This document shows positions 36,791-52,966 of a stretch of 52,966 bases of DNA, piece by piece. A program made the translations under genes and the position numbers. Numbering within the stretch: the stretch's first letter is position 1; every line of letters begins with the position of its first letter. A model generated the notes under the pieces. The model ran no database searches and was not told where the DNA came from. It saw only the letters and a list, made by a program, of their open reading frames with translations. The DNA is from a bacterium (GTDB lineage: Bacteria > Krumholzibacteriota > Krumholzibacteriia > G020349025): assembly GCA_031362565.1 (NCBI GenBank), contig JANLSU010000091.1:1-52966 (forward strand). Direction: 5' to 3'.

Positions 36791-36812
36791 GCCCGCGAGC
36801 CGCGTGCGAGCA

Positions 36813-36992: not shown

Positions 36993-37263
36993 CTCAGTCA
37001 CCTCCGGTAATGGCCGGCAAGCGGCCTTTCTCTGGACTCATGCACAGTTGGGGCCACCCGGGCCGAACAGCGCAAACAGCTGCACAAACGACAGTTAAAT
37101 TGACGCAAGCGATCGAGGAGGCCCAGTGGTGCTACGCAGAATTCGCGCCGCTCGCAAGCTTTGCGCCCGGGCTTGGCCTTGGGCGCAAGAGACCCAAGTA
37201 CCGGCGGTCCCGTCTTCGGGCTAGGATTCCGGGGTGGACTTCAAAGGGCTAACTGGGGGTTCC

Positions 37264-37728: not shown

Positions 37729-38159
37729 GCCGGGCGACTCTGGGTGTGGCGCTTGTGAGCGGGATAGGATTCGGCTTCGGCCTCGCGTACTCGACCATGA
37801 CGCGACCCGAAGTCGTACTCGATTTTCTGCGCTGGCGCGATTTTGGGATGTTGCTCGTGCTGGGTGGGGCCGTGGCCGTCACGACACCCACGTATCAGCT
37901 CCTCCCGAGACTGTTGCGGAAGCCGGTGCTCGCCGACTCGTTCGGGAAGCATCACTCGGTCATGAGCCGGCAAACGATCGGCGGGGCCGCGCTGTTCGGG
38001 ATCGGATGGGGCATCGGTGGGGTGTGCCCCGGTCCCGCGATCGCCGGTCTCGGCGCCGGAAATTGGCCGCTCCTCGTCGCGCTCGGCGCCATGCTGTTGG
38101 GCGCGTACGTCCAGGGCTGGATCGCCAGCCGTCGCCGCGTTGCCGCGCCCGATCGCTGA
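37725..38159 (+). CDS. YeeE/YedE-family partner subunit
   Basis: GIGFGFGL..S.M..PEVVLDFL, GAALFGIGWGIGGVCPGP; ATGA overlap with the previous gene. Confidence 0.88.
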   Translation: MSRATLGVALVSGIGFGFGLAYSTMTRPEVVLDFLRWRDFGMLLVLGGAVAVTTPTYQLLPRLLRKPVLADSFGKHHSVMSRQTIGGAALFGIGWGIGGVCPGPAIAGLGAGNWPLLVALGAMLLGAYVQGWIASRRRVAAPDR

Positions 38160-38197
38160 AGCTTAAATCGCCGTACGAATGCCCGGACCCGCGGTAG

Positions 38198-38400
38198 CTA
38201 CCGGTACAAGCCTTTGACACGACCCCAACTCGTGGGCACGACTGCGATCCGCCAATCCGGTAGACCGGTCGCGACCCAGACTTGCGAATACGACGAGTCC
38301 AATCCTGGGTACCTTGCGAACGCGATCGTCTGGCCGTCGGGCGACCAGGCGGGCGATCTGCCTTCCGTGAGCTGCACCGCGGGGCGATGGAGTGCCTTCG
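38198..38400 (-). pseudogene. 3' remnant of a TolB/PD40-repeat secreted protein ending SWGRVKGLYR
   Basis: QLTEGRSPAWSPDGQTIAFAR is one PD40 repeat, followed by the tail motif; no signal peptide or further repeats upstream. Confidence 0.65.
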
Positions 38401-38586
38401 TGACTCCAAAGTGTACTCCTGCAGCCATTCCGTGGTGAACGATTCGTCGCGGGCGGGGAGCGGCAGGCGAGTCACCCACCGGTGCTTTACATGTTCCGGA
38501 CGGCACGGTGAGTGCTCCCTGAGTGCTCAGGATCGGAACCAAGCAGTCGGAGTTCGTCAAACACCGTCCCGCAGTTCCCTCGTCCC

Positions 38587-38615
38587 TTGACTTCGGGTAT
38601 AACCATAGTTATACT
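38587..38615 (+). promoter_or_regulatory. sigma70 promoter with overlapping palindromic operator for the mazEF-like operon
   Basis: TTGACT-N17-TATACT; perfect inverted repeat GTATAAC-cata-GTTATAC at 38597-38614. Confidence 0.85.
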
Positions 38616-38621
38616 AGTGGT

Positions 38622-38858
38622 ATGAAGACCGCCATATCGATCCCGGACCCCGTATTCCGCTCCGCCGAGGCCTTGGCCCGGCGGTTGAAGATTTCGCGCA
38701 GCCACCTCTATGCGAACGCGGTGGCGGAGTTCGTCGCCAAACACCGTCGAAACCAGCTCACCAGGCAATTGAACGACGTGTACTCCGGCACCGAGGGCGG
38801 AATCGACGCCGACTTGCTTTCCCTGCAGCAACGCTCACTCCCGGATGAGGAGTGGTGA
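38622..38858 (+). CDS. ribbon-helix-helix antitoxin (ChpI/MazE-like)
   Basis: MKTAISIPD..F..AEALARRL.ISRS.LY..A..EFV...LT..LN.VY...EW; overlaps the toxin start. Confidence 0.85.
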   Translation: MKTAISIPDPVFRSAEALARRLKISRSHLYANAVAEFVAKHRRNQLTRQLNDVYSGTEGGIDADLLSLQQRSLPDEEW

Positions 38859-39196
38859 TGCTTCGGGGAGACGTTTGGTGGGCAACGCTTCCACAGCCGG
38901 TTGGATCCGGTCCAGGATTTCGACGCCCGGTCGTTCTCGTTCAGTCCGATGCGTTCACGAGAAGCCGCATCCGCACGGTCGTGGTCGTAGTCGTCAGTTC
39001 GAACGCACGCCTGGCGTTGGCTCCGGGAAACGTGCAACTTTCGGCCGAAGTATCGGGGTTACAGCGGGACTCCGTCGCCAACGTGTCGCAAATCATCACG
39101 ATCGACAAGGCGTTCCTTGTCGAACGATGCGGACGCCTTCCCGAATCGATCATCCGTCAGATCGAAGAAGGACTGCGCGTCGTTCTCGCCCTGTGA
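38852..39196 (+). CDS. mazF: PemK/MazF-family endoribonuclease toxin
   Basis: RGDVWWA.L..P.GS.PG.RRPVVLVQSD.F, PGNV.L, SGL..DSVANVSQI.TIDK. Confidence 0.92.
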   Translation: MVMLRGDVWWATLPQPVGSGPGFRRPVVLVQSDAFTRSRIRTVVVVVVSSNARLALAPGNVQLSAEVSGLQRDSVANVSQIITIDKAFLVERCGRLPESIIRQIEEGLRVVLAL

Positions 39197-39409
39197 CGGT
39201 CGCTCTTTCCGCGCAACGACCCGCACTTTCTGGGGAGCGACTTCGACCTGCCGCCGACACGGGCCTCGGAAGTCATCGGTCGTGTAGCGGCGGCTCGGGT
39301 TGGAAAACCGAGGCGGGCTGGCAACGCTCGCCACCACGACCGGGGCGTCGAGTGCCGCGTCAGTTTCATATTGCGAACCTGGCACCACGGCCCTTGCCGC
39401 AGGGTCACG

Positions 39410-39750
39410 CTATCGGACGCGCACCAACTGCCGGCTGGCGGTCAAGCCTCGGGTCTCCAGCCGGTAGAAGTAGATGCCTGGTGCGGTCAGAACGCCTCGA
39501 TCGTCGCGCCCATCCCACGAAGCATCGTGGTGTCCGGCGTCGAGGGTTCGATCGACCACGCGACGAACTCGGCGGCCGGCGGCGTCGTAGATCGTGAGGC
39601 GGGCGGGCGCTCGGGTGCCCAGGTCGAAGGCGATCGCCACGCTTCCGCCTCGGAACGGGTTGGGATGACTCGTGCCGAGCCGACTCCGAAGCACGATCGC
39701 TCCGATCGTTGCCGATACCGGCGCGAAGAACGCGCTCTCCCCTCGTGACT
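39410..39750 (-). pseudogene. orphan C-terminal FlgD-Ig/T9SS-type domain (gene remnant)
   Basis: SHPNPFRG...IAFDL...IYDAAGRRVRRVVD....GHH...WDGRDD.G....PGIYFYRL, with no signal peptide or cargo domain upstream. Confidence 0.7.
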
Positions 39751-39886
39751 GAGCGCGACGGTTCTCTGTGGAGCCTCTGCAACGACCAGGTCGTGCGGTG
39801 GGAGCGCTGCGGCGCGACGGCACGGTGATCCGTAAGGATTCCCCCCAACCTCTGACATGATTGCTGCTGCTGGCGAAGCCCAGAAG

Positions 39887-39970
39887 CAGAAAACGGCCGC
39901 TGGAGCCGACTCCAGCGACCGTTTCGCAAACTGGCTCCGCGGTCCGTACGATTTGCGAACCATTCGATTC
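39887..39970. repeat. cassette-boundary repeat copy A
   Basis: Hairpin AAACGGCCGCTGGAG/CTCCAGCGACCGTTT, then AACTGGCTCCGCGGTCCGTACGATTTGCGAACCATTCGATTC. Confidence 0.85.
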
Positions 39971-40029
39971 ACAATTACGCGCCGGCTCCAGGCCACTTCG
40001 AAGCTCCCGCGCCTCGGCGGCCAGAGTCT

Positions 40030-40506
40030 TCAGGCGAGCCCTTCAGGCGTGCACTCAAGAGCGAGCTCCGACGCGACCTGGGGCTCCGGTGGCGCGGGAA
40101 CTTTGCGGCTCGCGAGGAAGCGCGCGACAACCTCCGGCGGCAGGGCATCGTCGTAGCCCCAGATTCCGGGGCGAATCTCGACCTGGTACTCGGTCAGCGA
40201 GTCGACCGGAATGGTGGGGCTGAGATCAGGGCCAACGATGTCCGTCCCTTCGTCCCAGGGCGCCTGATCCTCGGCCGCCAACTGCAGCGCGTTGCGACGG
40301 TAGCTGCGTTGGGCCCGGGACGAGCCTTTGCGAGGCGCGATGCGCAACTGCCGCCGCTGGATCACCGAGCGCACGAACAGGACTGCCGCGAAGACGATGA
40401 GGATCGACACGTCCGCCTGCCTTTGGGCCACAAACAGCACCGTGAGGACGCCCGCAGTACCCAACAACGCCATCAGCACGAAGTCGGTGAGCAATGCCGT
40501 CCTCAT
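40030..40506 (-). CDS. hypothetical membrane protein (2 TM)
   Basis: GAAGGAG RBS; two hydrophobic segments and a polar tail; main ORF of cassette A-B. Confidence 0.65.
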   Translation of the reverse strand: MRTALLTDFVLMALLGTAGVLTVLFVAQRQADVSILIVFAAVLFVRSVIQRRQLRIAPRKGSSRAQRSYRRNALQLAAEDQAPWDEGTDIVGPDLSPTIPVDSLTEYQVEIRPGIWGYDDALPPEVVARFLASRKVPAPPEPQVASELALECTPEGLA

Positions 40507-40817
40507 GACTACTCCTTCGCTCGGGGTGCTGCCTGGGAGGCATCCGGGAACGTTGCGACCCGTTATTAAGCTAACATTGCTGTGTTAGGGTTCGATTGGG
40601 TCGGTGTGATGCTTCAGTGTCGGGATTTGTGGAATTCCACGCAAATACCCTCGGCCGACCACAGTCGCGCCGTTCTAGCTCGTCATCGTCGCGCAGAAGT
40701 TACTGGACGCCGCTTCTCGTTCTTGGGATCGAGAAGCACCTCGAGGAAGCCGGCTGTATGGTCCTCGAGGCCAGCCGACGCGGTGTAGATCGCCGCATCG
40801 CCGAACTCGTTCTTGAT

Positions 40818-40918
40818 GGTTCGAATCATAAGAAAGGCCCCACAGTCAAATGACTGCAGGGCCTTCGCTTCCGAAACTGGCTCCCCGGTCTGTACGATTT
40901 GCGAACCATCCGGTTCGA
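40818..40918. repeat. cassette-boundary repeat copy B
   Basis: GGTTCGAATC...AAGGCCCCACAGTCA-aa-TGACTGCAGGGCCTT...AACTGGCTCCCCGGTCTGTACGATTTGCGAACCATCCGGTTCGA. Confidence 0.92.
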
Positions 40919-41118
40919 CATCCGGCGGTGACGACTCAGATCACTGCACCGCGCGTAGACATCGGGTGTGAAGACGGTGGACAAGAGCGAAACGGTCTTG
41001 CCACCCCGCCCGCTCCCGCGGTACGTCCAGTAACCCAATCGTGAAATGTGTTCCAGCAGGCACGAGGAGTGCTCGGCGACGACGACGGGCGCGTTGTGAG
41101 CCCCGACGCAAGGCGATC

Positions 41119-41644
41119 ATGACGAAGTCTCAGGAAGCCCTGCCCTCGGATCGGATCCGCCAGTCGATACTGTTGATCCGCGGACAGCGGGTCATGCTCG
41201 ATGTGGACCTGGCTCTGGTTTACGGCGTGACGACGAAGCGCCTGAACGAGCAGGTCACACGCAACCAGGACAGATTCCCGGCAGATTTCATGTTCCGCCT
41301 TACCAGGCAGGAGAAAACAGAGGTGGTCGCAAATTGCGACCACCTCCAAGGCCTCAAATTCTCCAAGGCGCCGCCGCGAGCCTTCACGGAACACGGCGCC
41401 ATCATGCTGGCGGCGGTCTTGAGCAGCCCCGTCGCCATCCATGCCAGCGTGCAAATCGTGCGAGCGTTCGTGCAGCTGCGCGAGATGCTGTCCGGCCATC
41501 GGGATCTTGCCGACAAACTCGCGGTGCTGGAGCGGCGGTACGACCATCAGTTCAAGGTCGTGTTCGACGCTATCCGCGAACTGATGATCCAAGGAGCATG
41601 CTCCGAAGAAGGAGATCGGCTTCAAGGCGTCGGGTCGCCGGTAG
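41119..41644 (+). pseudogene. ORF6N (KilA-N-like) DNA-binding protein with a frameshift near the C-terminus
   Basis: IRGQRVMLD.DLA.VYGVTTKRLNEQV.RN.DRFP.DFMF.LT, P.AFTEHGAIM; the family-typical tail PKKEIGF lies in another frame after ~41587 and ends at TAG 41642-41644. Confidence 0.8.
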
Positions 41645-41694
41645 GTGGTGAGCGGTTGGGAATCGCGCCAGGCGCAAAAAGGCAAGTGCGCAGG

Positions 41695-41797
41695 GGTTCG
41701 AAGCGTACAAAACGGCCCCACAGCCAAGTGGCTGCAGGGCCGTCGCTTACGAAACTGGCTTCCCTGCCCTGTACGATTTGCGAACCGTTCGGTTCGA
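41695..41797. repeat. cassette-boundary repeat copy C
   Basis: GGTTCGAAGCGTACA...ACGGCCCCACAGCCA-ag-TGGCTGCAGGGCCGT...AACTGGCTTCCCTGCCCTGTACGATTTGCGAACCGTTCGGTTCGA. Confidence 0.9.
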
Positions 41798-41995
41798 GGT
41801 GCGTCGCGCCGCACGAAACCCATGAGCGGGTTCCGCTCGCGTGGCCGACGGGGGTACTGGCCCCAAGGCTTGGTTTTCGCTTCGATGCCCGTCTGGACCG
41901 GAGAGGCTGCCTTCCCTTGAAGAATAAATGGGGTATGCAGTGGTCCAAAATACCCCTATCCTTGTTCTCTGTACCCCGTTTCCGGGAGCGCTTTG

Positions 41996-43069
41996 ATGCA
42001 CTCTCTAGATCGTAAGTTCCTATCAAAACTGACCTTTACGCCAGAAGAGGCAGCCACGCTTCGGCAGCTCGGAGAATGCCGCGGGCGACAGGACCTCTTC
42101 AGGAAACAGCGCCCTGAGGTCCTTGAGGGTCTTCGAACGGTTGCCGTTGTTGAGTCGAGCGAATCGTCCAATCGCCTCGAAGGAATCTCTATTCCTCACC
42201 ACCGCTTGGAAAAAATCGTCCTGCATCAGACAGCGCCTCGCAACCGGTCCGAGCAGGAAATCGCCGGCTACCGCGACGCACTAAATCTCATCCATGAATC
42301 GGCCGATGACATGCCCTTCACGGTCGGCGTTGTCCAGCAACTGCATCAGCAGGTTTTTCGTTATCTACCCGGCAGCGCCGGCCAATGGAAGATGAGCGAC
42401 AACGAAATCGTCGAGCGCGACCCGGATGGGTCCGTGCGCGTGCGCTTTCGACCGGTGCCCGCGGTCGCAACCCCGCACCTCATGCGCGAGTTTGTCGAGC
42501 ACTTTGCCAAGGATCAGCAAGACCGAACCATCGACTCGCTTGTCCTCGTACCTTTGGCGATCCTGGACTTCCTCTGTATCCACCCGTTCACAGACGGCAA
42601 CGGCCGTGTCGCGCGGCTGATCACGCTGCTCTTGCTCTATCGCTCCGGCTACGAGGTGGGACGTTACATCAGTTTGGAGCGTATCTTCGAAGAATCCAAG
42701 GAATCGTACTACGAGACCCTGGAGTCGAGCTCTCAGGGATGGCACGAGGGTGCACACGACGCGCACCCGTGGCTCGACTACTTCTGGGGCGTGTTGCTTC
42801 GCGCTCATCGTGAGTTCGAAGATCGCGTCGGACACGTCACAACCGGGCGGGGCGCCAAAACGGCGCAAGTGCGCCGAGCGGTGCGCGCCAAGAATCTCCC
42901 GTTTTCGATATCCGAACTCGAGCGAGATTGCCCGGGTGTCAGTCGCGAACTGATTCGGCGCGTCCTCCGTGAAATGCGAGACGCGGGGGAGATTGAAACC
43001 CAAGGCGCGGGTCGTGGCGCCCGCTGGCGACCTCTTGTTGGTAAGCATCCGGCCTCCCCGCTCGGGTAA
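41996..43069 (+). CDS. Fic family protein with C-terminal winged-HTH-like domain
   Basis: HPFTDGNGRVAR Fic motif; N-terminal SNRLEG inhibitory-type motif; C-terminus FSISELERDCPGVS...G.GRGARW. Confidence 0.92.
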   Translation: MHSLDRKFLSKLTFTPEEAATLRQLGECRGRQDLFRKQRPEVLEGLRTVAVVESSESSNRLEGISIPHHRLEKIVLHQTAPRNRSEQEIAGYRDALNLIHESADDMPFTVGVVQQLHQQVFRYLPGSAGQWKMSDNEIVERDPDGSVRVRFRPVPAVATPHLMREFVEHFAKDQQDRTIDSLVLVPLAILDFLCIHPFTDGNGRVARLITLLLLYRSGYEVGRYISLERIFEESKESYYETLESSSQGWHEGAHDAHPWLDYFWGVLLRAHREFEDRVGHVTTGRGAKTAQVRRAVRAKNLPFSISELERDCPGVSRELIRRVLREMRDAGEIETQGAGRGARWRPLVGKHPASPLG

Positions 43070-43135
43070 ATCTGTGCGAACCGGCTCCCGCGCCGGTATG
43101 GCACGCGCCTGATCGAGGCGTCCGAGGAGAGCGCC

Positions 43136-43224
43136 GGTTCGAATCATGAAAAAAGCCCCGCAGCCAACTGACTGCAGGGCTTTCACTTAGAAACTGGCTC
43201 CCCGTGGCCGACGCTATTCGAACT
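43136..43224. repeat. cassette-boundary repeat copy D (variant right arm)
   Basis: GGTTCGAATC...AAAGCCCCGCAGCCA-ac-TGACTGCAGGGCTTT...AACTGGCTCCCCGTGGCCGACGCTATTCGAACT. Confidence 0.88.
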
Positions 43225-43345
43225 ATAGTGGCAGACGCAGACTGGTGGAACGGGCGACGGCGGGCGGTTCTGCGGGGAATCGCGTTGTTGGGATGACTGC
43301 ATGGGAACTGCTTTGGGCCCCCAGAGCGGGCGACAGCGCGCGCCA

Positions 43346-45745
43346 TCAACGTGCCAAATGCGTCCGCAGATACCGTCGGTACAGCTCGCAACTGAAATCG
43401 ATCTTGTTGTCGCCGCTCTGGAAGACCACGCCGGCCGCGAGGAGCCGGTGGAACCCGTCCGCGTCCTTGAGCTGCGGGCTCTCGAGCGAGGCCCGCAGCG
43501 CGTCCATGACCTCGGGCATCTGTGAGACCGACACGAGAATCCGCTTGAGATGGTCGCCGAACGGTCCCTCATCCTGGTCGGCCTGCGCGAGCAAAGCCGG
43601 AAAATCCATCACGCCGCGTTTGACGACGTCGAGCGCCCGCCGGGTGAGAAACGGCTGGCCCGCGATCAAGGCACGCAACGCCTGCACTTCGCCCGGCGAA
43701 ACGAGTGGCGCCCCGTACCGGCGGTTCAATTCCTCCATCTGATTCAGATCAAAACCCTGCAGCTGCAAGTGCCGCCCGACGTTGAACGGTGATTGATTCA
43801 GGTCTCGAATGAATAGATGCGCCTCGGTCGCGTAGCTGATCACGACAGTGAATAGGCTCCACGGCCCCTGCGGCTCGGTGGCCCGCGCGTTGTGCCAGGA
43901 GCGGACGAGCCCGAAGAAGTCGCTGGCGAACGGCGTGCCGAACAGCTTGTCTGCCTCGTCCATGAACCACACGAGCGGCTTGGGCGAGGCCTCGATCAGG
44001 GCGCGAATGGCGTTGTCGAGATTGATGCCCGGCCCGAAGACGTCGAGCCACTCGTTCGCGAAGTCGTACGTGGTCCCGAGTTGGCGCGCCATCGTCGCCG
44101 CGAGCAACTTGTAGAACTGATCCTCCGAGGCAAGCTGCGAAGAGCCGATCTTCTGGAAGTCCGTGCTCGCGTGGCGCAGCCCCAGCTCGCGCCCGAGCTG
44201 CGCGCCGCGCCCGAGGAGCGACGTCTTGCCGATCTGGCGTGGCCCCTTGATGAGGATGATGCTTTCGCCGGCCTTGAGCGCATCGAGGAACTCCGCGTCG
44301 ACGCGCCGCTCCATGTAGAACGGCGATCCGGGCGGCACCGCGCCGCCAACCGGTTCCAGCACCACGTCCGCCGACTTCTGCTTCAGCGGTTCGGTGAGCG
44401 CGGTGACGACTTCTTCGACCACGCGCGCGTCGTCGTTCGGTTCCTGCCAGAGGCAGTAGTTGAGCTGCTGAAGGATCGCCCCAGCGGCCCCTCCGAGTGG
44501 TTTGTCCGAGCCAATCCGCACCGGCAGGATCCGCGGCTTGCCCTTGGTGCGCGACTCGTCGCCGGCGGTCTCCAGTTCATATTCCAGCATCTCGCTGCCG
44601 GCGGCCGAATCCGACAGCAGCGGGATGACGGCATCCGCGGACCGGATGCGCTCTTCGATCGCCTTGGCCCATTCGACGCCGATCTTGAGATGCCGATCGA
44701 TGAACACGTCGTGGCCCATCGCCACGAGGCGCTCCTCCAAGAGACGCATCAGCTGCTCGTCCGGCTGCGCTTTCCGCTTGTAGAGCAGCACGATGGAGAG
44801 CGGTTTCACGGCCGCGGCAATCGGCCTCGCGGCTGCAATCGGCGCACTACCGGATGGTGCGGGGCGGTCGTGGCCGTCCAGCTGCTGTTTGAGGCTCCGC
44901 AGATCCACTTGAAAGTCCAGGACGCTCTGGTAGCGCTCGTCACGCCTCTTGCGCAACGTCTTCGCCACGATGCGTTCCAGTTCCGCGGGCAGATCGGGCC
45001 GGACGCGGACGAGGGGCGGCGGCTCGTGTTCGAGGATCGCGACGATCACGTGACTGTTTGTCTCGCCGGCAAACGGCGCCGTCCCCGCGATCATCTCGTA
45101 GAGCACGACTCCCAGACTGAAGATGTCCGAGCGCGCATCGACCGGCGCGCCGCGCGCCTGCTCGGGCGACATGTAGCCGCATGTGCCCAGCACGGTGCCG
45201 AAGTCGGTGTTGACGCCAAGCGCGGTCTCGGCTGCGGCGTCCGCGTCGGGAGCCGATGCTTCGGTCAGTTTCGCCAAACCGAAGTCCAGGACCTTGACCA
45301 GGCCGTCGGCCCGCACCATCACGTTCTCGGGCTTGATGTCCCGATGGACGATGCCGGCGTGGTGCGCTTCGACGAGCGCACTCGCGATCTGAATCCACAC
45401 GTCGAGCATCTCGCCGAGACTCATGCGCTGGCGTGCGAGGCGGGTGCGCAGTGTCTCGCCGTCGATGAACTCGGTGGCGATATAGTGCCGGTCGCCCGCC
45501 TGGCCAATCTCGTAGATCGTGAGGATCGTCGGATGGTTGAGCGCCGAGGCGGCGCGCGCTTCCTGTTGAAAACGGCGCACGCGGTCTTCGCTTTTGGTGA
45601 ATTCGTCGGACAGCAGCTTCAGCGCGACCTTGCGGCCGAGTTTCGTGTCTTCGGCGAGATACACCTCGCCCATGCCGCCGGCGCCAATCGCGGCAAGGAT
45701 GCGATAGTGAGCGATGGTCGTACCGGGCGAGAGCGACGTCTTCAT
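43346..45745 (-). CDS. Ser/Thr kinase-TIR-AAA_35 (STAND-like NTPase) fusion protein
   Basis: GAGGMGEVY, VALK, HRDIKPEN, DFG, YMSPE; TIR-like segment DVFIDRHLKIGVEW...ADAVIPLLS....SEMLEYE; GGAVP..SPFY.ER, Walker A GPRQIGKTS, FMDEAD, QSPFNVG. Confidence 0.88.
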   Translation of the reverse strand: MKTSLSPGTTIAHYRILAAIGAGGMGEVYLAEDTKLGRKVALKLLSDEFTKSEDRVRRFQQEARAASALNHPTILTIYEIGQAGDRHYIATEFIDGETLRTRLARQRMSLGEMLDVWIQIASALVEAHHAGIVHRDIKPENVMVRADGLVKVLDFGLAKLTEASAPDADAAAETALGVNTDFGTVLGTCGYMSPEQARGAPVDARSDIFSLGVVLYEMIAGTAPFAGETNSHVIVAILEHEPPPLVRVRPDLPAELERIVAKTLRKRRDERYQSVLDFQVDLRSLKQQLDGHDRPAPSGSAPIAAARPIAAAVKPLSIVLLYKRKAQPDEQLMRLLEERLVAMGHDVFIDRHLKIGVEWAKAIEERIRSADAVIPLLSDSAAGSEMLEYELETAGDESRTKGKPRILPVRIGSDKPLGGAAGAILQQLNYCLWQEPNDDARVVEEVVTALTEPLKQKSADVVLEPVGGAVPPGSPFYMERRVDAEFLDALKAGESIILIKGPRQIGKTSLLGRGAQLGRELGLRHASTDFQKIGSSQLASEDQFYKLLAATMARQLGTTYDFANEWLDVFGPGINLDNAIRALIEASPKPLVWFMDEADKLFGTPFASDFFGLVRSWHNARATEPQGPWSLFTVVISYATEAHLFIRDLNQSPFNVGRHLQLQGFDLNQMEELNRRYGAPLVSPGEVQALRALIAGQPFLTRRALDVVKRGVMDFPALLAQADQDEGPFGDHLKRILVSVSQMPEVMDALRASLESPQLKDADGFHRLLAAGVVFQSGDNKIDFSCELYRRYLRTHLAR

Positions 45746-47462
45746 TTGACTCCAGCGTTCTGCGGCGCCTTCGTCAGCGGCGCCTTCGTCAGCCACATCA
45801 TGGCATTGCCGCGCCCGTCGATGCTGACGATCGATTCGCCGTTGGCCGTGAATCGCGCCCGGGAGACCGTCTCGCGGTGGCCCACAAGCGACGTCAGTTC
45901 CCGAAACGTAGCCGCGTCCCAGACCCGGACGGTCCGGTCACCCGAGGCCGTGACAATGCGGCGGCCGTCGGGCGCGAAGGCCGCATCCCCGACAAATTGC
46001 GAGTGCCCGACCAGTTTCCCCAGCAGGCGGCCTGCGATCACGTCCCAGACCTCGGCGTTGTCGTTGGAGGTGCTCGCAACGAGCCGAGTGCCGTCCGGCG
46101 AGAACATCACATTGTTCAGGCCGCCACCGATCCGCGGGAAGGCACGCGCTGCCCATGTCGTGGTATCCCAGACCCAGAGCTCGTTGCCCCACAGACCGGC
46201 CGCCAGCCATCGGCCGTCCGGTGAGACCTTCGCAGTCCCTATATTCTGCGGTGTTTGCAACTTTTTGACGACGCGCCTCTCACCGGTATCCCAGATTTCA
46301 GACGTCTTGTCCGCGAAATACAGAATGGCGTGCCGCTTGTCGGGGAATTGCCGGAAGCCGTTGGGTACCCTTTCGTTCGCCGGAAGCGTCATGACGGATT
46401 CGTGCGTGTCGAAATCCACGACGTCTAGCCGGCCGGCGGCGCGCTTGACGATCCCCCAGCTCTCGCCGCTCTCGGGGTTGACCAACGGCACCCCGGCGAA
46501 CCAGCCGATCCGGCGTGATTCGCCACGGAGTGGATCGCGCTCGAACGCCGTGCTCCCACACCTTACGCGGGCGATGGCGTTCCCTGTGAGCACCGCCGTC
46601 GCGTCCGCCCATTCTGACCCGCCCAGCGCCGTCGGCGTTTCGACGTAGGACGCCGGATCGTAAATGCGGAGCGTGGTGTAGCTGGCGGCGACGCGTGTCT
46701 TGTCCGGTGAGATCGACAGAAGGCCGGCATCGGGAAACGTCTGTAGAAGTCTCGGTTCCGGCCCCTGAAGGTCGTAGAGACGGCCCAGACGGTCCCAACA
46801 CGAGGCGGCCAGCCACATCCCGTCTGCGGAGAACTGGAGATGGTACACCTGCAGATCGGCCACCTGGGCGCGGCTGATTTCCTTCCGTGCGCGCAGGTCC
46901 CACAACTGGACCCACCCGGTCATCGTGCTCGTCGCGAGCCGCTCGCCATCAGGTTGTAGCACTCGCGAATGCCGGCGAAAAATTCGTTGGCGCTGAACGA
47001 CAAGCTGCGCGTCGCGTCGATTTCATCGACGAAAATGACGATCTGCGAGTCGACCTTCTCGAGCGCCACGTCGCGCAAAGCGGAGAAGAAGCGCTGCATC
47101 GGGCTGAGCGCCTGTTCCTCCTGCCAGTTGCGCAGCATCTCGGCGCGCAGGCCGAGGGCGCGGCCGACTTCGACGACGAGGCCCGCGTACCACTGGTCCG
47201 GTGTGACGTTGCGGCCACCGATCTTCGTCAGATCGACAAAGGCCGTGCGCGCGCCTGCCGCCTGCAACCGCGCCATCGTGCGCACGCAGAGCGACGATTT
47301 ACCCATCTGCCGCGAGTTGAGGACGTAGCAGAACCGGCCGCCGGACAGGGCCTCGAAGAGCGCCGCGTCGGCGCCGCGCTCGACGTAGCTCGGCGAGTCG
47401 AGTGGGACAGTGCCCCCGGAGACAAAAAATCCTTCCGCACCGGCGGTGGCGGCGCCTTGCAA
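45742..47462 (-). pseudogene. AAA_35-WD40 protein with an out-of-frame internal deletion
   Basis: The 5' part (GGTVP..SPSYVER.AD, SRQMGKSS, IFVDEID, FFAGIRECYN) runs at ~46952 directly into WD40 repeats in another frame (PDGERLAT...LWD, GHSQFV..AAFAPDGRRIVTASGDRTVRVWD). Confidence 0.8.
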
Positions 47463-47801
47463 GCGGAACCCCTCTCAAAGTGCGGAAACCAAACGGTGTC
47501 TGCACGACACAGCATAGCGTGTGGCGAGGTTCGGCGACAACAGGCATGCCTCGCGTGTGTCGAGCGCCGTCGCATGGGCCCCGGCGAACCCCGCGCTTCG
47601 CTGCGATCGCTCCGTTCCGTTTCCATTGATCCGGCCGACCGGCCGGATGCGCTGAGCTGGCGCTGGGCGCCACCCCATTGCCGGGCAAGACTCGAAGCGT
47701 TCTACTACCTTCCCTGGCGGCGATCACCGCGGCGTGCGGATCGACGAATCCACACCCGCACCCCGAGCGCGATTCTCAACTGGAATGGCGGACTCGAACA
47801 C

Positions 47802-50438
47802 GTGACGATCAACGCGGGGACGATGCTCGGGCACTACCGGATCGCTTCGGCGATCGGCGCGGGCGGCATGGGCGAGGTGTACGCGGCGCGAGACACCAAG
47901 CTGAACCGAGACGTCGCGATCAAGGTACTCCCCGAAACCGTGGCCCGGGATTCGGAGCGCCTGGGGCGGTTCCGGCGCGAGGCGCAGGTGCTCGCTTCGC
48001 TCAACCATCCGAATATCGCCGCGATCTATGGACTGGAAGAGTCCGGTGACATCCACGCGCTGGTGATGGAGCTCGTCGAAGGGCCCACCCTCGCGGGTCG
48101 TATCGCTGCGGGGCCGATCCCTCTCGACGAAGCGCTGATGATCGCCAAGCAGATCGCGGACGCGCTCGAGGTCGCGCACGAGCGTGGCATCATTCACCGC
48201 GATCTCAAGCCCGCAAATGTGATGGTGACCGACGACGACAAGGTCAAAGTGCTCGACTTCGGCCTCGCCAAGGTGTTGACCGGCGAGAGCGACCTCGACG
48301 ACCTCTCGCACTCCCCCACGGTGATCGAAGCCACGCAAGCCGGAGTGCTTCTGGGCACGGCCGCCTACATGAGTCCCGAGCAAGCACGCGGCCGGGCGGT
48401 GGACAAACGCACGGACCTCTGGGCATTCGGCGTCGTGCTGATGGAAATGCTGACGGGCAGGCGCCTCTTCACCGGCGACACCGCCACCGATGTGATCGCC
48501 GCAGTGCTGACACAGCAAGTGGATTGGACGGCGCTGCCGGACGCGACACCCGCGCCAATTCGCCGCCTGCTGCGCCGGTGCCTCGAAAAGGACCACAAGC
48601 GCCGGCTGGCCCACGCGGCGGCGGCGAAGTTCGAGATCGACGATGCGCTCGCCGGTGTAGGCGATGGCCTGGCGATCGAAAGTCCAACTCGATCCGCGCC
48701 CTCCTCGCGTCGGACGGCGTTGCGTGTCGTACTGCCCGTCGTGTTGCTCACGGCGGTTGTTGCCGGCCTCTCGGGACGGGCTCTCCAGCGACGCGGACCC
48801 AGCATCGCGCCTCGCGAGCTCATGCTGACAATCGTGCCGCCCGACAGTGTTCGTCTGCGACCGGTCGGAACGATGAATTCGCCGCCGCACATTTCGCCGG
48901 ATGGGTCTGCCGTCTTGTTTCTGAACGGCACCGATCACTCTCTGTACGTGCGCCGCCTCGATTCACCCGACCTCCTGCGGGTGCCCGGTTCGGACGTGGT
49001 CCGGAACGAACCGTTCTGGCGCGGCTCGGCCGCTGTCACATTTCCCTATCTGCAGCAGCAGCTTCTCAGCGTCCGCCTTCCGGACGGTGCGCCAGAAACG
49101 GTGATGCCACTCGATGCATTCTCCCGCAGTGGCAGTTGGAGCGATGCCGGTACACTGTTGCTTTCGGCGCTCAATCACCTCGTGACGCGCCACCCGGATG
49201 GCACGACCGCAACGGTCGCGATTCCCGGCGACCGAACCGGTGACCTCGTGTATCCACAATTCCTGCCGGGAGGCGAAGATTTTCTGGCGCTGTTCAAGCC
49301 CGAGGGCAGCGACGGTGAAGCGTGGCTTGCGACGCTGAACAAGGATACGGTCACGAGGCCAACCGTTCTCTTCAAGAACGACACCGCGGCCAGCTACACG
49401 TCGTGGGATGGTGGGCGTGTGCTGTTCGTCAAGAACGATAACCTGTACTCGCAACACCTGAACAGGTCCGCTCGCGCGGTCGAGGGCTCGCCCGAGCTCG
49501 TTGTGCGAGGCGTCGCCTCGCAGCCAGGCCTGCAACGGGCCGACTTTTCAGTCGCCGAAAACGGGACGGTCGCTTGGCGCCCGGGTCGCGCCGCACTCTC
49601 CCAAGTGATGGTCTTTGATCGCCGCGGTGTGGTCGTGGGTCCCGCCGGCCCCGCGGGCCCGATCGAAACCGTCGCTGTTTCGCCCGTTGACGACTCGCGC
49701 CTGCTAGTTCTAGGGCCGGATGCATGGCTGGTCGACGTCGGCCAAAACGGCCGCGTCCTCCTCCCGGGTGACGTGGAGTGGTGGAATTGGTCACCCGACG
49801 GCGGCAAGGTGTTGGGTTTGCGCGGGGAGAACCGGCTCGTCGCGCGACCCGCCGACAGCGTGGGTGGCGTCGACTCCGCCGGCCAGTTCCCGTCAGGCTC
49901 GTGGCATCCCAAAGCCATTTCACCCGACGGGAAATTCATTCTGGCGCGCCAACTCTCGGGAGCCGCAAGCTGGGCTCGCCTTTCCGGCATCGACGCGGCA
50001 GGCTCATGGACGCCACTCGCTGGATCCGACGAGTCGCTCGCCGACCTCGGCTTTTCGCCGGATGGCCAGTTCGTTCTCTACGATGTGTATGCGTCCGGGC
50101 GCGGCATTTACGTCCAACCGTTTCCAGGTCCGGGCCGGCGCCAGCTTGTCGACCAAGATGGGATCGATCCGGTGTGGCGCGGCGATGGGAAGGAGATCCT
50201 GTTCACGCGCGGTGCGGCCGTGTGGTCGGTCGCGGTCACGCGCTCGGGCAGCTCGCTGGCGTTCGGCAGCCCGCAGCGATTGTTCGAAGGAGTGCGCCGC
50301 GCACCCAGTGGCGTCAATCAGAGCAGCGGCCTTGCCGTGTCGCACGACGGTACGCACATCTTCCTGGTGCAGGGCGTCGAGCAGCCGGAAGCGAATCTCA
50401 TTCACGTGATGATGCGAGTCGCGAAGCACCAACGATGA
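47802..50438 (+). CDS. Ser/Thr protein kinase with TM segment and TolB/PD40-like propeller
   Basis: GAGGMGEVY, VAIK, HRDLKPAN, DFG, YMSPEQ; hydrophobic segment; repeated SPDG motifs; P.WRGDGKE; start at GTG 47802. Confidence 0.9.
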   Translation: MTINAGTMLGHYRIASAIGAGGMGEVYAARDTKLNRDVAIKVLPETVARDSERLGRFRREAQVLASLNHPNIAAIYGLEESGDIHALVMELVEGPTLAGRIAAGPIPLDEALMIAKQIADALEVAHERGIIHRDLKPANVMVTDDDKVKVLDFGLAKVLTGESDLDDLSHSPTVIEATQAGVLLGTAAYMSPEQARGRAVDKRTDLWAFGVVLMEMLTGRRLFTGDTATDVIAAVLTQQVDWTALPDATPAPIRRLLRRCLEKDHKRRLAHAAAAKFEIDDALAGVGDGLAIESPTRSAPSSRRTALRVVLPVVLLTAVVAGLSGRALQRRGPSIAPRELMLTIVPPDSVRLRPVGTMNSPPHISPDGSAVLFLNGTDHSLYVRRLDSPDLLRVPGSDVVRNEPFWRGSAAVTFPYLQQQLLSVRLPDGAPETVMPLDAFSRSGSWSDAGTLLLSALNHLVTRHPDGTTATVAIPGDRTGDLVYPQFLPGGEDFLALFKPEGSDGEAWLATLNKDTVTRPTVLFKNDTAASYTSWDGGRVLFVKNDNLYSQHLNRSARAVEGSPELVVRGVASQPGLQRADFSVAENGTVAWRPGRAALSQVMVFDRRGVVVGPAGPAGPIETVAVSPVDDSRLLVLGPDAWLVDVGQNGRVLLPGDVEWWNWSPDGGKVLGLRGENRLVARPADSVGGVDSAGQFPSGSWHPKAISPDGKFILARQLSGAASWARLSGIDAAGSWTPLAGSDESLADLGFSPDGQFVLYDVYASGRGIYVQPFPGPGRRQLVDQDGIDPVWRGDGKEILFTRGAAVWSVAVTRSGSSLAFGSPQRLFEGVRRAPSGVNQSSGLAVSHDGTHIFLVQGVEQPEANLIHVMMRVAKHQR

Positions 50439-50888
50439 TCACCGCCGGGCATCGGATGCCGGATCGGGAGCGTCACAGAGCCCTCGTCACTGACTAGCGT
50501 TGCCGTCGTACCAAATGGAAGCGCGCGCTACGCGGGATCGGCATCGTCGCGGCACATCTCGACGCGGGCGCACAACGGTTCGAGGAGCGCGTTGCAAAAC
50601 TTCCTCCCGCTGTGCTCGATTCTCTTGATGCAGGCATCACCGATCTGCTGCGCAAGCGGGATCGTGGGCGCGGACACACCGGCGCCGATGACAAAGAAGA
50701 AGGGTGACTCGGACCCATGCGGCGTTCATTGTCTCGGCGAGGGCTTCATCCAGTGATAGCAAGTTCGTTGGCATGGTGACCGGCCCCAGCTCAGTTCAAC
50801 GGCCTCGGACTCAGCCGGCGCAGGGAATAGAACGACGCGAACCTCCACGGATCTTTGCGCGGTGAGATCTTACAGCGGTAAGCACGAT

Positions 50889-50974
50889 GCAGAAAAGGCC
50901 GCCGGAGTTGCCTCCAACGGCCTTTCCGCGAACTGGCTCCCCGGTCTGTACGATTTGCGAACCATTCGCTTCGA
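50889..50974. repeat. cassette-boundary repeat copy E
   Basis: AAAGGCCGCCGGAG-ttgc-CTCCAACGGCCTTT...AACTGGCTCCCCGGTCTGTACGATTTGCGAACCATTCGCTTCGAG. Confidence 0.9.
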
Positions 50975-51247
50975 GCTACCACGACTCGGACCGCGTCGCG
51001 ACCGCCCTACCGGCCTGGGTGAAACGACCCAGATGACCTGCGATGGCTCGCGTCGCTTGCCTCGCGCCAGCCCGAGGCGGTGGTGACTTCGGTCGACCAG
51101 AACCGGCCGATCTCTGCTTTTTTTCTTCGTACCCATGGTTTGTTGAGTGCCAATTGCCGATACTTGCGCCCGCATGATCTACGTGCGCTGATGGGAAGTC
51201 GTGCCTGCGTCCCGCGAAGAACTCGTGGGCTTGAGAAGGAACACCTC

Positions 51248-51961
51248 TTGAACAATCACAAGTTAGGATTTCAACGGTCGCTTACGGCGCTGGGTCATCC
51301 GGAATTACAGCGCGCACACCGGACCTGTTCATCGCTCCTTGCTGTGGGAGCCATGGCTTGGGTTGCCTTCTCTCTTGCCGTGGTCGCGCCTGCCAATGCT
51401 ACCAGCGGGGTGGCCAGCTTTTCGGGTGGCGTGGCCACAACCGCGGGACAGCGGTACGGCGGTCTCGCAAACACGACGATTGGCTGGAGCTTCACGGTGG
51501 GAGCCCAAAACATCACCGTGTCAGCCCTCGGGTTCTTCGATCAGGATGGGGACGGGCTCAATACGGCGCACGAGGTTGCGATTTGGACCACCGCGGGTTC
51601 ACTGTTGGGCTCTGAGACGGTTCAATCAGGAACCGCGAGTAACCTCGTGAACGGATTTCGGTTCGAGCCCTTGGGCAGCGCGCTTGTGCTTCTAGCCGGT
51701 CAATCGTACGTCGTCGGCAGCCACATCACGCTCAGCTCATCCGACGTGTTCTGGGCCGGGACAACCGCGACGTATGCCCCGGAGATCACCTATGGCACGG
51801 GCCGTGACATTGAGCAGCCATTTAACCAAGGATTCGCGTTTCCGTCTCGGACGCGAGGCGACATCACCGGTGGTTTCTTTGGCCCGAATTTCCAACTCGA
51901 CGGTTCTGTCGTCGGCGTAGAGTCCGACACGTGGGGCGCCGTTAAACACCTCTATCGCTAG
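51248..51961 (+). CDS. secreted DUF4082-like beta-sandwich protein ending TWGAVKHLYR; start uncertain
   Basis: Signal peptide ending APANA; TIGWSFTV...ITVSALGFFD..GDGL..AHEVAIW...G.LL...NGFRF...FGPNF; GAAGGA before TTG 51248. Confidence 0.75.
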   Translation: MNNHKLGFQRSLTALGHPELQRAHRTCSSLLAVGAMAWVAFSLAVVAPANATSGVASFSGGVATTAGQRYGGLANTTIGWSFTVGAQNITVSALGFFDQDGDGLNTAHEVAIWTTAGSLLGSETVQSGTASNLVNGFRFEPLGSALVLLAGQSYVVGSHITLSSSDVFWAGTTATYAPEITYGTGRDIEQPFNQGFAFPSRTRGDITGGFFGPNFQLDGSVVGVESDTWGAVKHLYR

Positions 51962-51993
51962 AGAGAAGCCGACCTGGAATGTCCCGTGTTTAA

Positions 51994-52035
51994 GCCTCCC
52001 TCCGCTCCCGGGTGGGGGGAGGCCTTCGCCTTTTT
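51994..52035 (+). terminator. probable intrinsic terminator
   Basis: GCCTCCCTCCGCT/GGTGGGGGGAGGC stem (G-U pairs on the + strand), then CTTCGCCTTTTT. Confidence 0.55.
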
Positions 52036-52109
52036 GAACACCGGAGTCGGAGATTATGTGACCGCGGTGGAGCGGGTGACCGGCTGGGTTGTCGCCAGGC
52101 AGTGCCGAT

Positions 52110-52210
52110 GGTTCGAAACGTACAGAAAGGCCCTGCAGCCAACTGGCTACAGGGCCTTCGCTTGGAAACTGGCTCCCCGGTCTGTACGATTTGCGAACCG
52201 TGCGGTTCGA
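52110..52210. repeat. cassette-boundary repeat copy F
   Basis: GGTTCGAAACGTACAGAAAGGCCCTGCAGCCA-ac-TGGCTACAGGGCCTT...AACTGGCTCCCCGGTCTGTACGATTTGCGAACCGTGCGGTTCGA. Confidence 0.92.
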
Positions 52211-52252
52211 GCTTCTACGGGCTGGCCCACGCCCTGCCGTCGCTTCGTTCTG

Positions 52253-52291
52253 ATAACAAAGATTGACAAATTTTGCTATTCAGGGTAGGCT
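52253..52291 (+). promoter_or_regulatory. sigma70 promoter and operator of the parDE-like operon
   Basis: TTGACA(52263)-N17-TAGGCT(52286); imperfect inverted repeat ATAACAAA...TTTGCTAT around the -35. Confidence 0.75.
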
Positions 52292-52297
52292 TCCCGT

Positions 52298-52564
52298 ATG
52301 AACGTCTCGCTCACTCCAGAACTCGAAGACTTCGTGAAGCGCCTGCTCGCCTCGGGGCTTTATACGTCCGCAAGTGAGGTTGTCCGCGACGGGCTGAGGC
52401 TGCTTGCCGAGCGCGAGGTGTTGAAGGAAACCCGCCTCGGGGAACTCCGGAAGCAAATTGCACACGGCCTCGCCGAAGCCCACGCCGGCAAGCTCAAAGA
52501 TGGCGAGGAAGTTCTGCGAGAAGCGGTACGAGCAATTCGCAAACGCAGTAGGAAGAGGGCGTGA
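52298..52564 (+). CDS. parD: ParD-family antitoxin
   Basis: MNVSLTPELEDFV...LASGLYTSASEVVRDGLRLL...LR..I..G. Confidence 0.92.
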   Translation: MNVSLTPELEDFVKRLLASGLYTSASEVVRDGLRLLAEREVLKETRLGELRKQIAHGLAEAHAGKLKDGEEVLREAVRAIRKRSRKRA

Positions 52565-52854
52565 CCCCCTACGTCGTCACCGAGCTCGCCGAGTCCGACC
52601 TCATCGAAATCGCTTCGTACATCGCCGAAGATAACCTTGCGGCTGCGGAACGCGTCCTCGCTGACTTCAAGGCGGCCTTCGAAAAACTCGCTCAAATGCC
52701 CGAGATGGGACATCTCCGCCTCGACCTCGCCGACGAGGAACTACGGTTCTGGTCCGTCCATTCCTACCTGATCATCTACCGCCCGGAGACCAAACCTCTT
52801 CAAGTCGTTCGCGTCCTGAGTGGCTACCGAGACATTCCGGAGCTGCTGCGCTAA
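52561..52854 (+). CDS. parE: RelE/ParE-family toxin
   Basis: AESDL.EI..YIAEDN..AA...LA..PEMGH.R.DL...YLI.YR.....V.RVL.G.RDI; GTGA overlap with parD. Confidence 0.92.
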   Translation: MTPYVVTELAESDLIEIASYIAEDNLAAAERVLADFKAAFEKLAQMPEMGHLRLDLADEELRFWSVHSYLIIYRPETKPLQVVRVLSGYRDIPELLR

Positions 52855-52892
52855 GCACGCCGTTGCTGGAAGCGTCTCGATGAGAGAGTGCC

Positions 52893-52966
52893 GGTTCGAA
52901 TCACAAGAAAGGCCCCACAGCCAAGTGACTGCAGGGCCTTCGCTCACGAAACTGGCTCCCCGTGGT
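52893..52966. repeat. cassette-boundary repeat copy G (cut by the window end)
   Basis: GGTTCGAATC...AAGGCCCCACAGCCA-ag-TGACTGCAGGGCCTT...AACTGGCTCCCCGTGGT. Confidence 0.9.

Follow-up and report, generated by a model that had tools for sequence, protein, structure and literature searches.

Serine integrase genes that overlap their own attachment (att) site have been described in Dehalococcoides, in which DsiB, an integrase of ~540 amino acids, has its stop codon outside the island and the islands are arranged in tandem at the 3' end of the structural RNA gene ssrA (McMurdie et al. 2011, PMC3146451). According to that account, 15 of the islands have no integration module and were proposed to be cis-mobilizable elements, full DsiB function was proposed only on the circle or beside an adjacent island, and the DsiB C-termini were called divergent. 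The locus described here is similar in that an integrase gene overlaps the att site and tandem elements occupy the 3' end of a structural RNA gene. It differs from the islands, as that account presents them, in four respects: the target is tRNA-Asn (tRNA-Gln in relatives) and not ssrA, no DsiA-like module is seen in the portion of the element on contig C128 that is present, the modules are mostly 0.8-1.4 kb, and, whereas the C-termini there are 'divergent', purifying selection conserves the tail on the P' side, which falls into defined families.

Comparable stacks are formed by CIMEs, which have no integrase, keep their att ends and pile up site-specifically at the 3' end of a gene (Pavlovic 2004, in PMC5704250), tandem accretion leaving chimeric internal att sites (PMC5704250). 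The modules of the present locus are likewise integrase-less, with att ends kept, and stacked at a gene 3' end; however, the tandem case in that source involves tyrosine integrases and the family here is one of serine integrases (PMC5704250). Furthermore, unlike those of CIMEs as presented there, the att arms of this locus encode part of the enzyme.

The Int protein of myxophage Mx8 is a tyrosine recombinase. Its attP lies within the integrase gene and integration creates a new 3' end and an altered specificity (reviewed in PMC6070905), a likeness to the present locus in both the position of attP and the change of 3' end, although Mx8 Int is a phage enzyme and is described in that review without a cassette stack. 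In mycobacteriophage BPs, attP lies inside the gene for the repressor, which on integration loses a degradation tag from its C-terminus, the BPs Int keeping its own tag in both states (PMC3694055), whereas the candidate tag here would sit on the integrase itself. The LI/A118, Bxb1, SPbeta and phiC31 integrases share with the present family the domain order, the fold and a 5-bp offset between P and B motifs, as far as these are described in PMC3783163. Compared with these phage enzymes, the crossover-spanning segment and the tail are extra, the solved structures ending near model residue 473, and the left arms of C128 type have no clear mirror motif. The layout itself was thus known before, from DsiB and from the analogous Mx8 Int; what is added here, by sequence comparison, is protein-level selection on the tail.

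The repeat array and the recombinase of the genome

The window (the whole stretch of 52,966 nt that was analysed) contains seven direct repeats, A to G, with six modules between the seven junctions (Table 1). Repeat G, a seventh copy truncated by the contig end, had been overlooked by the sequence-only reading; repeat C carries a one-base shift inside the core, and the tail of D belongs to a separate family from those of A, B, C, E and F, with the length of the helical tail family of C128-type large serine recombinases (LSRs). A weight matrix built from non-window arms, which leaves the shifted C and the cut G unscored, placed five window copies at 31.6-38.5 bits and gave just two other hits, at 22 bits, elsewhere in the 5.4-Mb genome. 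Genome-wide Pfam searches gave no recombinase hit on the array contig (C34), and the modules, without integrase and with att ends retained, have the form of cis-mobilizable elements. ARAGORN found no tRNA in the window, and the single Rfam match in 36000-52966 (E 0.74) was taken as chance. Among contigs of four runs, one run leaves the A-B module almost without cover and holds a joint 43224-50941 with just 24 letters on a side; neither observation was counted as evidence.

Table 1. Features of the repeat array, in window coordinates
Feature	Position	Strand	Support
MazE/MazF-like toxin-antitoxin pair, far end of array	38640..39196	+	PemK_toxin; synteny
Left arm A, dead 3' end of C128-type LSR gene (DMIAAAGEAQKQKTAAGADSSDRFAN)	39853..39931	+	77% over 91 nt to C128 LSR
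Core and P' arm A; short beta-type tail WLRGPYDLRTIRFTITRR	39932..39985	+	
Cargo A-B: 158-aa ORF, hydrophobic N-terminus, without family	40030..40506	-	
Left arm B, non-coding type: motif and terminator-like hairpin	40818..40877	+	
Core and P' arm B; tail WLPGLYDLRTIRFDIRR*	40878..40931	+	
Cargo B-C: ORF6N domain protein	41119..41640	+	PF10543 E 1e-28
Junction C: non-coding left arm, core +1 base, tail ..YDLRTVRFEVRRAARNP*	41696..41825	+	
Cargo C-D: Fic/DOC protein	41993..43069	+	module also in metagenome contig L105
Left arm D, non-coding type	43136..43194	+	
Core and P' arm D; 33-aa tail WLPVADAIRTIVADADWW...LLG*	43195..43296	+	
Cargo D-E (7.7 kb module)	43346..50438	mixed	
D-E: kinase-TIR-AAA_35	43346-45796	-	
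D-E: WD40 and AAA_35 pieces	45742-47462	-	
D-E: kinase, C-terminal repeat region	47802-50438	+	
Left arm E, dead 3' end of C128-type LSR gene (EKAAGVASNGLSAN)	50891..50933	+	94% over 54 nt to C128 LSR
Core and P' arm E; tail WLPGLYDLRTIRFELPRLG..	50934..50990	+	
Cargo E-F: DUF4082 protein, signal-peptide-like start	51368..51961	+	
Junction F: non-coding left arm, core, tail WLPGLYDLRTVRFELLRAGPRPAVASF*	52111..52253	+	
Cargo F-G: ParD/ParE toxin-antitoxin pair	52298..52854	+	module also in L103, L105
Junction G: non-coding left arm, core, D-type arm start (WLPV), cut by contig end	52893..52966	+	

The genome encodes on contig C128 an LSR of 525 amino acids (P0001), which reads through the repeat core into antisense tRNA-Asn, where its C-terminus (..GLSANWL-LGQDSNLRPSG*) is encoded. 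A gene of this genome reading into a core, as had been predicted, therefore exists, but it ends in the antisense tRNA and not in a window tail. The domains anticipated for such an enzyme are present: an N-terminal serine resolvase domain (PF00239, 80.2 bits, above the cut-off), a Recombinase domain (PF07508, 61.8 bits) and a zinc ribbon (PF13408, from precomputed annotation), together with a coiled coil. The core is the 3' end of tRNA-Asn, its Trp-Leu codons being the antisense of the tRNA acceptor end; full antisense tRNA was found at the LSR end in 59 of 80 related loci (35 Asn, 20 Gln, 4 other), and at 57 of these the LSR frame includes the Trp codon. In the right arm, the distance from the core to the Arg-Thr motif exceeds by 5 bp that to the copy of the motif in the tRNA T-arm, the offset that serine-integrase ZD motifs have between attP and attB in the description of PMC3783163. 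Judged by its motifs, the right arm is the P' arm of the element, an attP-type motif followed by a coding tail. LSR ends of L103/L265 type contain a mirror motif in the left half-site, displaced by one base; no copy was seen in 58 C128-type left arms, so that the site geometry is only half explained. A second LSR of the genome (contig C59) ends in a gene-like target and not in the repeat core.

A predicted model of P0030, a homolog of the C128 LSR, matches the SPbeta, Bxb1 and LI integrases with Z of 13.7-15.7 (rmsd 13-23 A, 209-449 residues aligned), and in all rows but one the solved LSRs align to about residue 473, short of the crossover residue Trp497. AlphaFold predicts two confident helices in the tail; a second AlphaFold model was poor overall (pTM 0.46).

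No overlap joining C34 and C128 was found, and adjacency of the array to tRNA-Asn in this genome is given by synteny only, across an assembly gap. In the relative G001 and in G005, window genes sit downstream of tRNA-Asn; in G001 a homologue of the MazE/MazF-like pair adjoins it by synteny, and the arm seen as left arm B abuts it. The array presumably joins C128 across the gap, and junction G is possibly the left end of the C128 element, given that inferred link. The left arm A hairpin is predicted to be able to terminate tRNA transcription on the minus strand.

Protein-level conservation of the tails

Arms were collected by profile search of the genomes of 50 of the 80 related loci, picked for long contigs, and from 151 genomes of the class, sequence being taken for part of the matches. 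The six translations and codon variants listed by the sequence-only reading are all present, and its view that the changes are coding-like is borne out: in 22 disjoint pairs from 110 arms, mismatches beyond the motif were distributed 128/102/194 by codon position, 194 of the 424 falling on the third, and pN/pS was 0.44 in the tail frame against 0.97 and 1.26 in the other frames. The helical family gave 77/55/118 within the tail, and the left arms gave no such excess (46/40/46). For codons 11-16 of five window copies, departures from the column majority were 7/4/12, which is suggestive only; with five homologous metagenome arms added, codons 11-17 gave 15/8/29 (position 3, p=7e-4, an optimistic value because the arms are related). 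Stop-free length does not favour the tail frame (65% vs 68% and 82%, all arms), beta tails range from 16 to over 50 amino acids, and early stops and frameshifts occur in several arms. The substitution pattern shows that the tails beyond the motif evolve as protein, under purifying selection.

The proposal that the right arm is an LSR C-terminal tail, completed when a gene is joined to it at the core, found its examples in P0030 and P0043, full-length LSRs that read through the core into W-L-P-x-x-D-x-x-R-T tails, and in L113, an LSR of at least 530 open codons that runs into a beta-type tail. Such tail-type ends occur in 2/120 full-length homologs and in 24/150 representatives, a few of these 24 pattern-defined tails (P0249, P0258) looking like chance, and 103 of the 120 homologs end in tRNA antisense or in a stub of at most 5 amino acids. 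L090, at first sight an intact LSR with a tail, was left out of the count, its frame breaking at 345 amino acids. The more specific expectation of a full-length protein with the exact YDLRT[IV]RF tail failed: none was found, the four aligned window tails had no match among longer proteins, and the nearest among 270 proteins was only P0123, a 161-aa fragment with HDLRTI. The counterpart of the window beta tails is the 3' end found in a different LSR clade (L103, L265), which they mirror, and an L103-type query found no such LSR in this genome. It had also been stated that the tails have no credible start, which is true, but in-frame LSR 3'-end remnants precede A and E.

Modules have been exchanged between genomes. 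The left arm of L105 matches D (67/69) and its right arm matches F (34/36), so that modules D-E and E-F are missing and the core joins the Fic module directly to that of ParDE; this junction gives comparative support to recombination by an LSR at the core. The L103 array reaches tRNA-Asn through an LSR remnant. Given that near-identical modules (92-94%) occur in differing orders and break in the core, the exchange is recent on that scale.

A probable stack of modules without recombinase, and its alternatives

It is suggested, with a probability of roughly 0.85, that integrative modules are stacked in tandem at the tRNA-Asn 3' end and that the repeats are their hybrid att junctions, left by LSRs whose crossover falls within the last codons of their own gene. 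In the excised circle (attP) the gene would run into the P' arm and gain the conserved tail; after insertion (attR) it would run into antisense tRNA and end in an unconserved stub, leaving the tail at the far end of the element. Repeated insertion at the tRNA, with loss of recombinase genes, would yield cargo modules, each with an orphan tail at its start and, at its end, a left arm that carries a terminator for the tRNA. The tail would thus belong mainly to the circle state, in which selection presumably acts, and would be carried along by recombinase-less modules, which may still move in trans.

It is possible, though doubtful, that the junctions are true att sites but the modules immobile, their coding signal being inherited from autonomous ancestors and now without function. 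The frameshifts and early stops of several arms, the finding of an LSR directly feeding an arm in 0/110 cases (strict pattern) and the failure to find the cognate clade of the beta tails in this genome all fit this possibility. However, modules of 92-94% identity in different orders, broken at the core, speak against immobility. For individual copies, such decay is compatible with the stack.

A further scenario is that a resident LSR takes its C-terminus from the adjoining cassette, different tails setting different activities. Shufflons consist of inverted repeats and invertible segments, the variable segment that lies adjacent being fused to a constant gene that is intact. The sequence-only reading had drawn this parallel, coupling cassette order to the C-terminus of the enzyme, and in its support the LSR 3' remnants at A and E continue in frame into tails that belong to a different family, several tail families exist among homologs, and in L064 (unpublished genome G110), where a second LSR sits at the tRNA, the upstream LSR frame reads into the helical tail of the next element. 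This scenario is improbable, given that no intact recombinase reads into a window tail, the array holding only remnants of 15-30 codons at A and E, that the core carries a frameshift in the C and C75 copies, and that beta-tail length and the prevalence of tRNA-state or stub ends are as described above. Moreover, all seven copies are direct repeats, without inversion. With no recombinase in the array and nothing inverted, the array is therefore a stack of modules that lack a recombinase, and not a shufflon.

DNA constraint could in principle generate the periodicity through the motifs that bind the recombinase and through inverted copies of them, the peptide being a by-product. Part of the site does behave in this way: inside it the third-position excess is absent (56/36/43), the Arg-Thr part is DNA-level because none of the three positions of its codons varies in 10/10 arms, an inverted motif copy lies 4 nt downstream in window-type arms and ~20 nt downstream in related arms, and beta-tail conservation at nt 34 and 36-39 is also compatible with an inverted motif. 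However, DNA symmetry alone does not account for nt 31 and 33, which are invariant although they are spacer bases without a symmetry partner, nor for nt 35, which the palindrome needs and which changes in 4/10 arms, each time synonymously. In addition, codon 17 keeps Arg in 10/10 arms through four codons, D and L104 differ by 7 synonymous changes with the stop position unchanged, and conservation in the helical family runs up to the stop at residue 33 and ends there, the same 12 pairs being near random after it (131/129/118 of 540). Beyond codon 10 this reading is largely refuted, and as a general account it is very improbable.

Integron cassettes carry attC sites with paired R boxes. That the array is such a series, worked by the integron integrase on contig C130 (TIGR02249, 448.6 bits, cut-off 265), is scarcely credible despite its small one-gene, toxin-antitoxin-rich modules and the position of both IntI and the array at contig ends, where adjacency is possible, since the array and the LSR element have the tRNA-Asn end as their common core, module changes fall at that core, a scan without positive control gave no attC-like box pair in 38000-52966, and no copy of the repeat was found on C130.

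Possible direction control and significance

In the 33-aa helical family (D type), 5/45 tails end in Ala-Ala against a background of 1.8% and 0/90 tRNA-state ends do so; the window D tail ends in LLG and the beta tails have no Ala-Ala end. The resemblance of this often Ala-Ala-ended family to the ssrA tag suggests a candidate degron present only after excision, and attP lies inside the LSR gene, as in the BPs-type integration-dependent tag. A regulatory role of the tail towards the enzyme, with a state-specific degron as the likeliest form, is a tentative proposal, and the fuller scheme is slightly more so: that this tRNA-targeting family sets direction by rewriting its own C-terminus, with an ssrA-like degron in the circle form and a tail-less, stable inserted form. 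Enzyme made from the circle would carry the two-helix tail and be short-lived, so that the circle would not be reinserted at once. The tail-less enzyme would excise and would insert recombinase-less cassettes in trans, which would make the tRNA locus the serine-recombinase counterpart of an integron.

Given that almost all database entries for these integrases represent the inserted form, those who mine or engineer the clade probably test a truncated protein. The orphan tails are a handy marker of element ends and of cassette stacks at tRNA genes. With a tail under selection at the opposite end of the element, the DsiB question of 2011 becomes directly testable, and if the tail is a degron or a directionality module, it would represent serine integrase control without a separate factor.

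The array and the origin of its core

The host genome is 5.4 Mb at 65% GC, and the window is an entire contig of it (C34), the right end of which holds seven direct repeats with six modules between them (table). Family searches found no match to recombinase families anywhere on C34. The sequence shared by the repeats is instead found on contig C128, where the gene of a 525-aa large serine recombinase (LSR) runs antisense into tRNA-Asn, ending ..KPFDVIAVAAEAHTREKAAGVASNGLSANWL-LGQDSNLRPSG and a stop: its Trp-Leu codons are the core common to the window repeats, and remnants of the same 3' end form the left arms of A (77% over 91 nt) and E (94% over 54 nt).

Repeat cores and modules at the right end of the window
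Feature	Core position	Length	Cargo or remark
Repeat A	39932		
Module A-B		946 bp	unknown ORF
Repeat B	40878		
Module B-C		879 bp	ORF6N protein
Repeat C	41757		one extra base
Module C-D		1438 bp	Fic protein
Repeat D	43195		
Module D-E		7739 bp	kinase/TIR/WD40 genes
Repeat E	50934		
Module E-F		1236 bp	DUF4082 protein
Repeat F	52170		
Module F-G		783 bp	ParDE
Repeat G	52953		truncated by contig end

An antisense tRNA at the gene end is the rule for this LSR family. It is present in full at 59 of 80 related loci (35 Asn, 20 Gln, one each Cys, Glu, Ser and Pro), 20 lacking a full one and one lacking the 3' end; in the 120 proteins nearest to it, the C-terminus is tRNA antisense in 90 cases, a stub of five residues or fewer in 13, a W-x7-R-T tail in two and something else in 11, with four lacking the anchor. 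In the right arm, the Arg-Thr codons are a copy of the T-arm motif of the tRNA, placed 5 bp further out from the core. Given that, in LI integrase, a 5-bp outward offset of the zinc-ribbon binding motif distinguishes attP from attB (PMC3783163), the right arm is identified as an element's P' arm. The LSR element of C128 (39042-41687, truncated by the contig end) carries an HTH gene, an unknown ORF and a DnaB-like helicase, and resembles a replicative or satellite element.

Coding constraint on the right arms

The sequence-only reading had proposed that the right arms are swappable recombinase C-terminal tails; its translations from the core are correct, and past the motif the arms do evolve as protein-coding sequence. 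Arms were collected with a sequence-only model of the site extending to one codon past the motif, the scoring matrix covering the first 29 bases only, which found them in 46 of the 50 genomes that carry an LSR (E<=0.3, tRNA halves included) and, among 151 genomes of the class, in 46 (E<=0.02). A matrix from non-window arms only gave five window copies at 31.6-38.5 bits and two weak matches elsewhere in the genome. The collection comprised 136 distinct arms, with one match in a shuffled-sequence control, of which 110 with a score >=24 and sufficient sequence were tested. Past the motif, mismatches by codon position were 128/102/194 in 22 disjoint pairs picked on DNA identity, and pN/pS was 0.44 in the tail frame versus 0.97 and 1.26 in the others; the arms are related, so p-values are optimistic. 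No third-position excess occurs inside the site (56/36/43) or in left arms (46/40/46). In 12 pairs of the helical tail family the counts were 77/55/118 within the tail and near random after the stop codon (131/129/118 of 540), so that the signal ends with the stop. Stop-free length across arms does not favour the tail frame.

A rival reading attributes such periodicity to DNA symmetry alone. In the window's own tail family (five window and five metagenome arms) no position of the Arg-Thr codons varies, which is a DNA constraint, and symmetry may contribute to how well nt 34-39 are conserved. Past Arg-Thr, codon 12 encodes Arg through three codons and codon 17 through four, and codon 15 is hydrophobic in nine of the ten arms. 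Symmetry alone fails for two reasons: two spacer bases lacking a symmetry partner are invariant, and a base needed by the palindrome varies synonymously in 4/10 arms.

The proposal that a tail completes a recombinase ORF held in part: full-length LSRs P0030 and P0043 read through into such tails, but protein searches did not find the exact YDLRT[IV]RF tail on any full-length protein. Such tails end 24 of 150 representative proteins (mostly fragments, from a query favouring tails), and L113 has an LSR with at least 530 open codons ahead of a beta-type tail. The helical family (consensus near WLPFLDTYRTxCxxPxPEFRxxLExxR; exactly 33 aa in 13/45 tails) accompanies C128-type enzymes. Tail D and its homolog on metagenome contig L104 are 33 aa with the same stop position and a C128-type LSR remnant lies at the end of module D-E, which by its sequence thus resembles a C128-type element that has been stripped. 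The short beta tails, those of A, B, C, E and F, correspond to the 3' end of a different LSR clade (L103, L265), which a search of the host genome did not find. In AlphaFold models the helical tail forms two helices (pLDDT 82-88). Solved LSRs align only up to about residue 473 in all rows but one, and the crossover Trp497 comes later; insertion therefore disrupts none of the known domains, and the tail is an addition to them.

Other ends were also seen: a third family, WLPGLxSQSVxxWD.. (P0125, P0130, P0162, P0220), and long tails with a helix-turn-helix-like end by eye (P0063, P0123). At L017, L161, L184 and L185 (G054, G141) a nearly symmetric second 48-bp site lies about 70 bp past a beta-type arm, its left motif overlapped by the 'PRVR' end of the tail.

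Probable position at tRNA-Asn and exchange of modules

The same repeats are present on metagenome contigs L103-L106, and L103 runs ParE, junction, cargo, junction, cargo, LSR remnant, tRNA-Asn. In L105 the Fic module is joined directly to the ParDE module, without modules D-E and E-F, by a junction whose left arm matches D at 67/69 bases and right arm matches F at 34/36; on this sequence comparison, array modules exchange at the core. In the relative G001 a non-coding left arm of the B/C/D/F/G type adjoins tRNA-Asn, with a MazEF pair resembling that of the window coming next, and genes from 16-19 kb of the window are found downstream of tRNA-Asn in G005. We infer that the array sits at tRNA-Asn and that C34 joins C128; no sequence overlap between them was found. 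Compensatory changes in 3/15 pairs keep a left-arm hairpin, which fits a terminator for the tRNA. The array is not a shufflon, although a shufflon-like coupling had been suggested. It is probably not an integron either, even though the genome has an integron integrase near a contig end at C130:96081-97358 (TIGR02249, 448.6 bits). A simple scan of C130 from 70000 to its end found no attC-like site.

Several further features were observed. Non-coding left arms (40818-40825, 41696, 43136, 52111, 52893; also L225, L248, L017) open with a copy of the T-arm-like motif; it lies some 57 bp away from the core, beyond reach of a standard half-site, and is conserved in two families. Another stack, on contig C75 (148-4607), lies at tRNA-Arg and contains partly duplicated tRNAs, small modules and decayed copies of both tail types (at 1188 and 3189). 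The complete chromosome G067:C1 has a large natural stack at 481629-703693, where six or more P' arms, all on the same strand, are spread over 220 kb ahead of tRNA-Asn. In L105 (3685-6022) a transposase and helper ATPase pair, IS21-like by eye, lies inside the Fic gene. Cargo proteins at 38198-38560 (-), 51080-51961 (+) and L103:1024-1767 have a common C-terminal motif like TWGxVKxLYR, which we take to be a possible sorting signal. The minus-strand region 43346-47462, where a kinase-TIR-AAA_35 gene is followed by AAA_35 and WD40 fragments, perhaps of a single broken gene, is possible defence cargo.

Candidate tail function and proposed mechanism

The layout itself is known. In McMurdie et al. 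2011 (PMC3146451), dsiB overlaps its att site, tandem islands lack integration modules, and the enzyme is suggested to reach its complete form only in the circle or next to a second island; other parts appear in CIME accretion (PMC5704250), Mx8 Int (PMC6070905) and BPs tag removal (PMC3694055). A literature search for selected tails in tRNA-targeting LSRs, with most subscription papers outside its coverage, gave no relevant description. The present analysis adds proof at the codon level, exchange exactly at the core and a degron lead.

Judged from tail ends, the best lead for function is proteolysis. Among the 27 helical tails that are 28-36 aa long (limits picked after seeing the data), five end in Ala-Ala, 10 in Ala and one in a charged residue, the background in long ORFs of the host being 1.8%, 12.6% and 33%; over the full set, Ala-Ala ends 5/45 helical tails versus 0/90 tRNA-state ends. 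The host tmRNA tag ends QLAA. None of the window's own tails ends in Ala-Ala (D ends LLG), which limits the degron claim.

Most probably, the excised circle makes the LSR with its tail, and insertion at tRNA-Asn replaces the tail by a stub and strands it at the element's far end; later insertions and loss of recombinase genes then give a stack of modules. Selection on stranded tails would have to act when they are translated, whether on the circle or downstream of another LSR, the latter being a layout found in L064 (unpublished genome G110; outside the codon tests and the 27-tail count, and one each of the 45 helical tails and 80 related loci).
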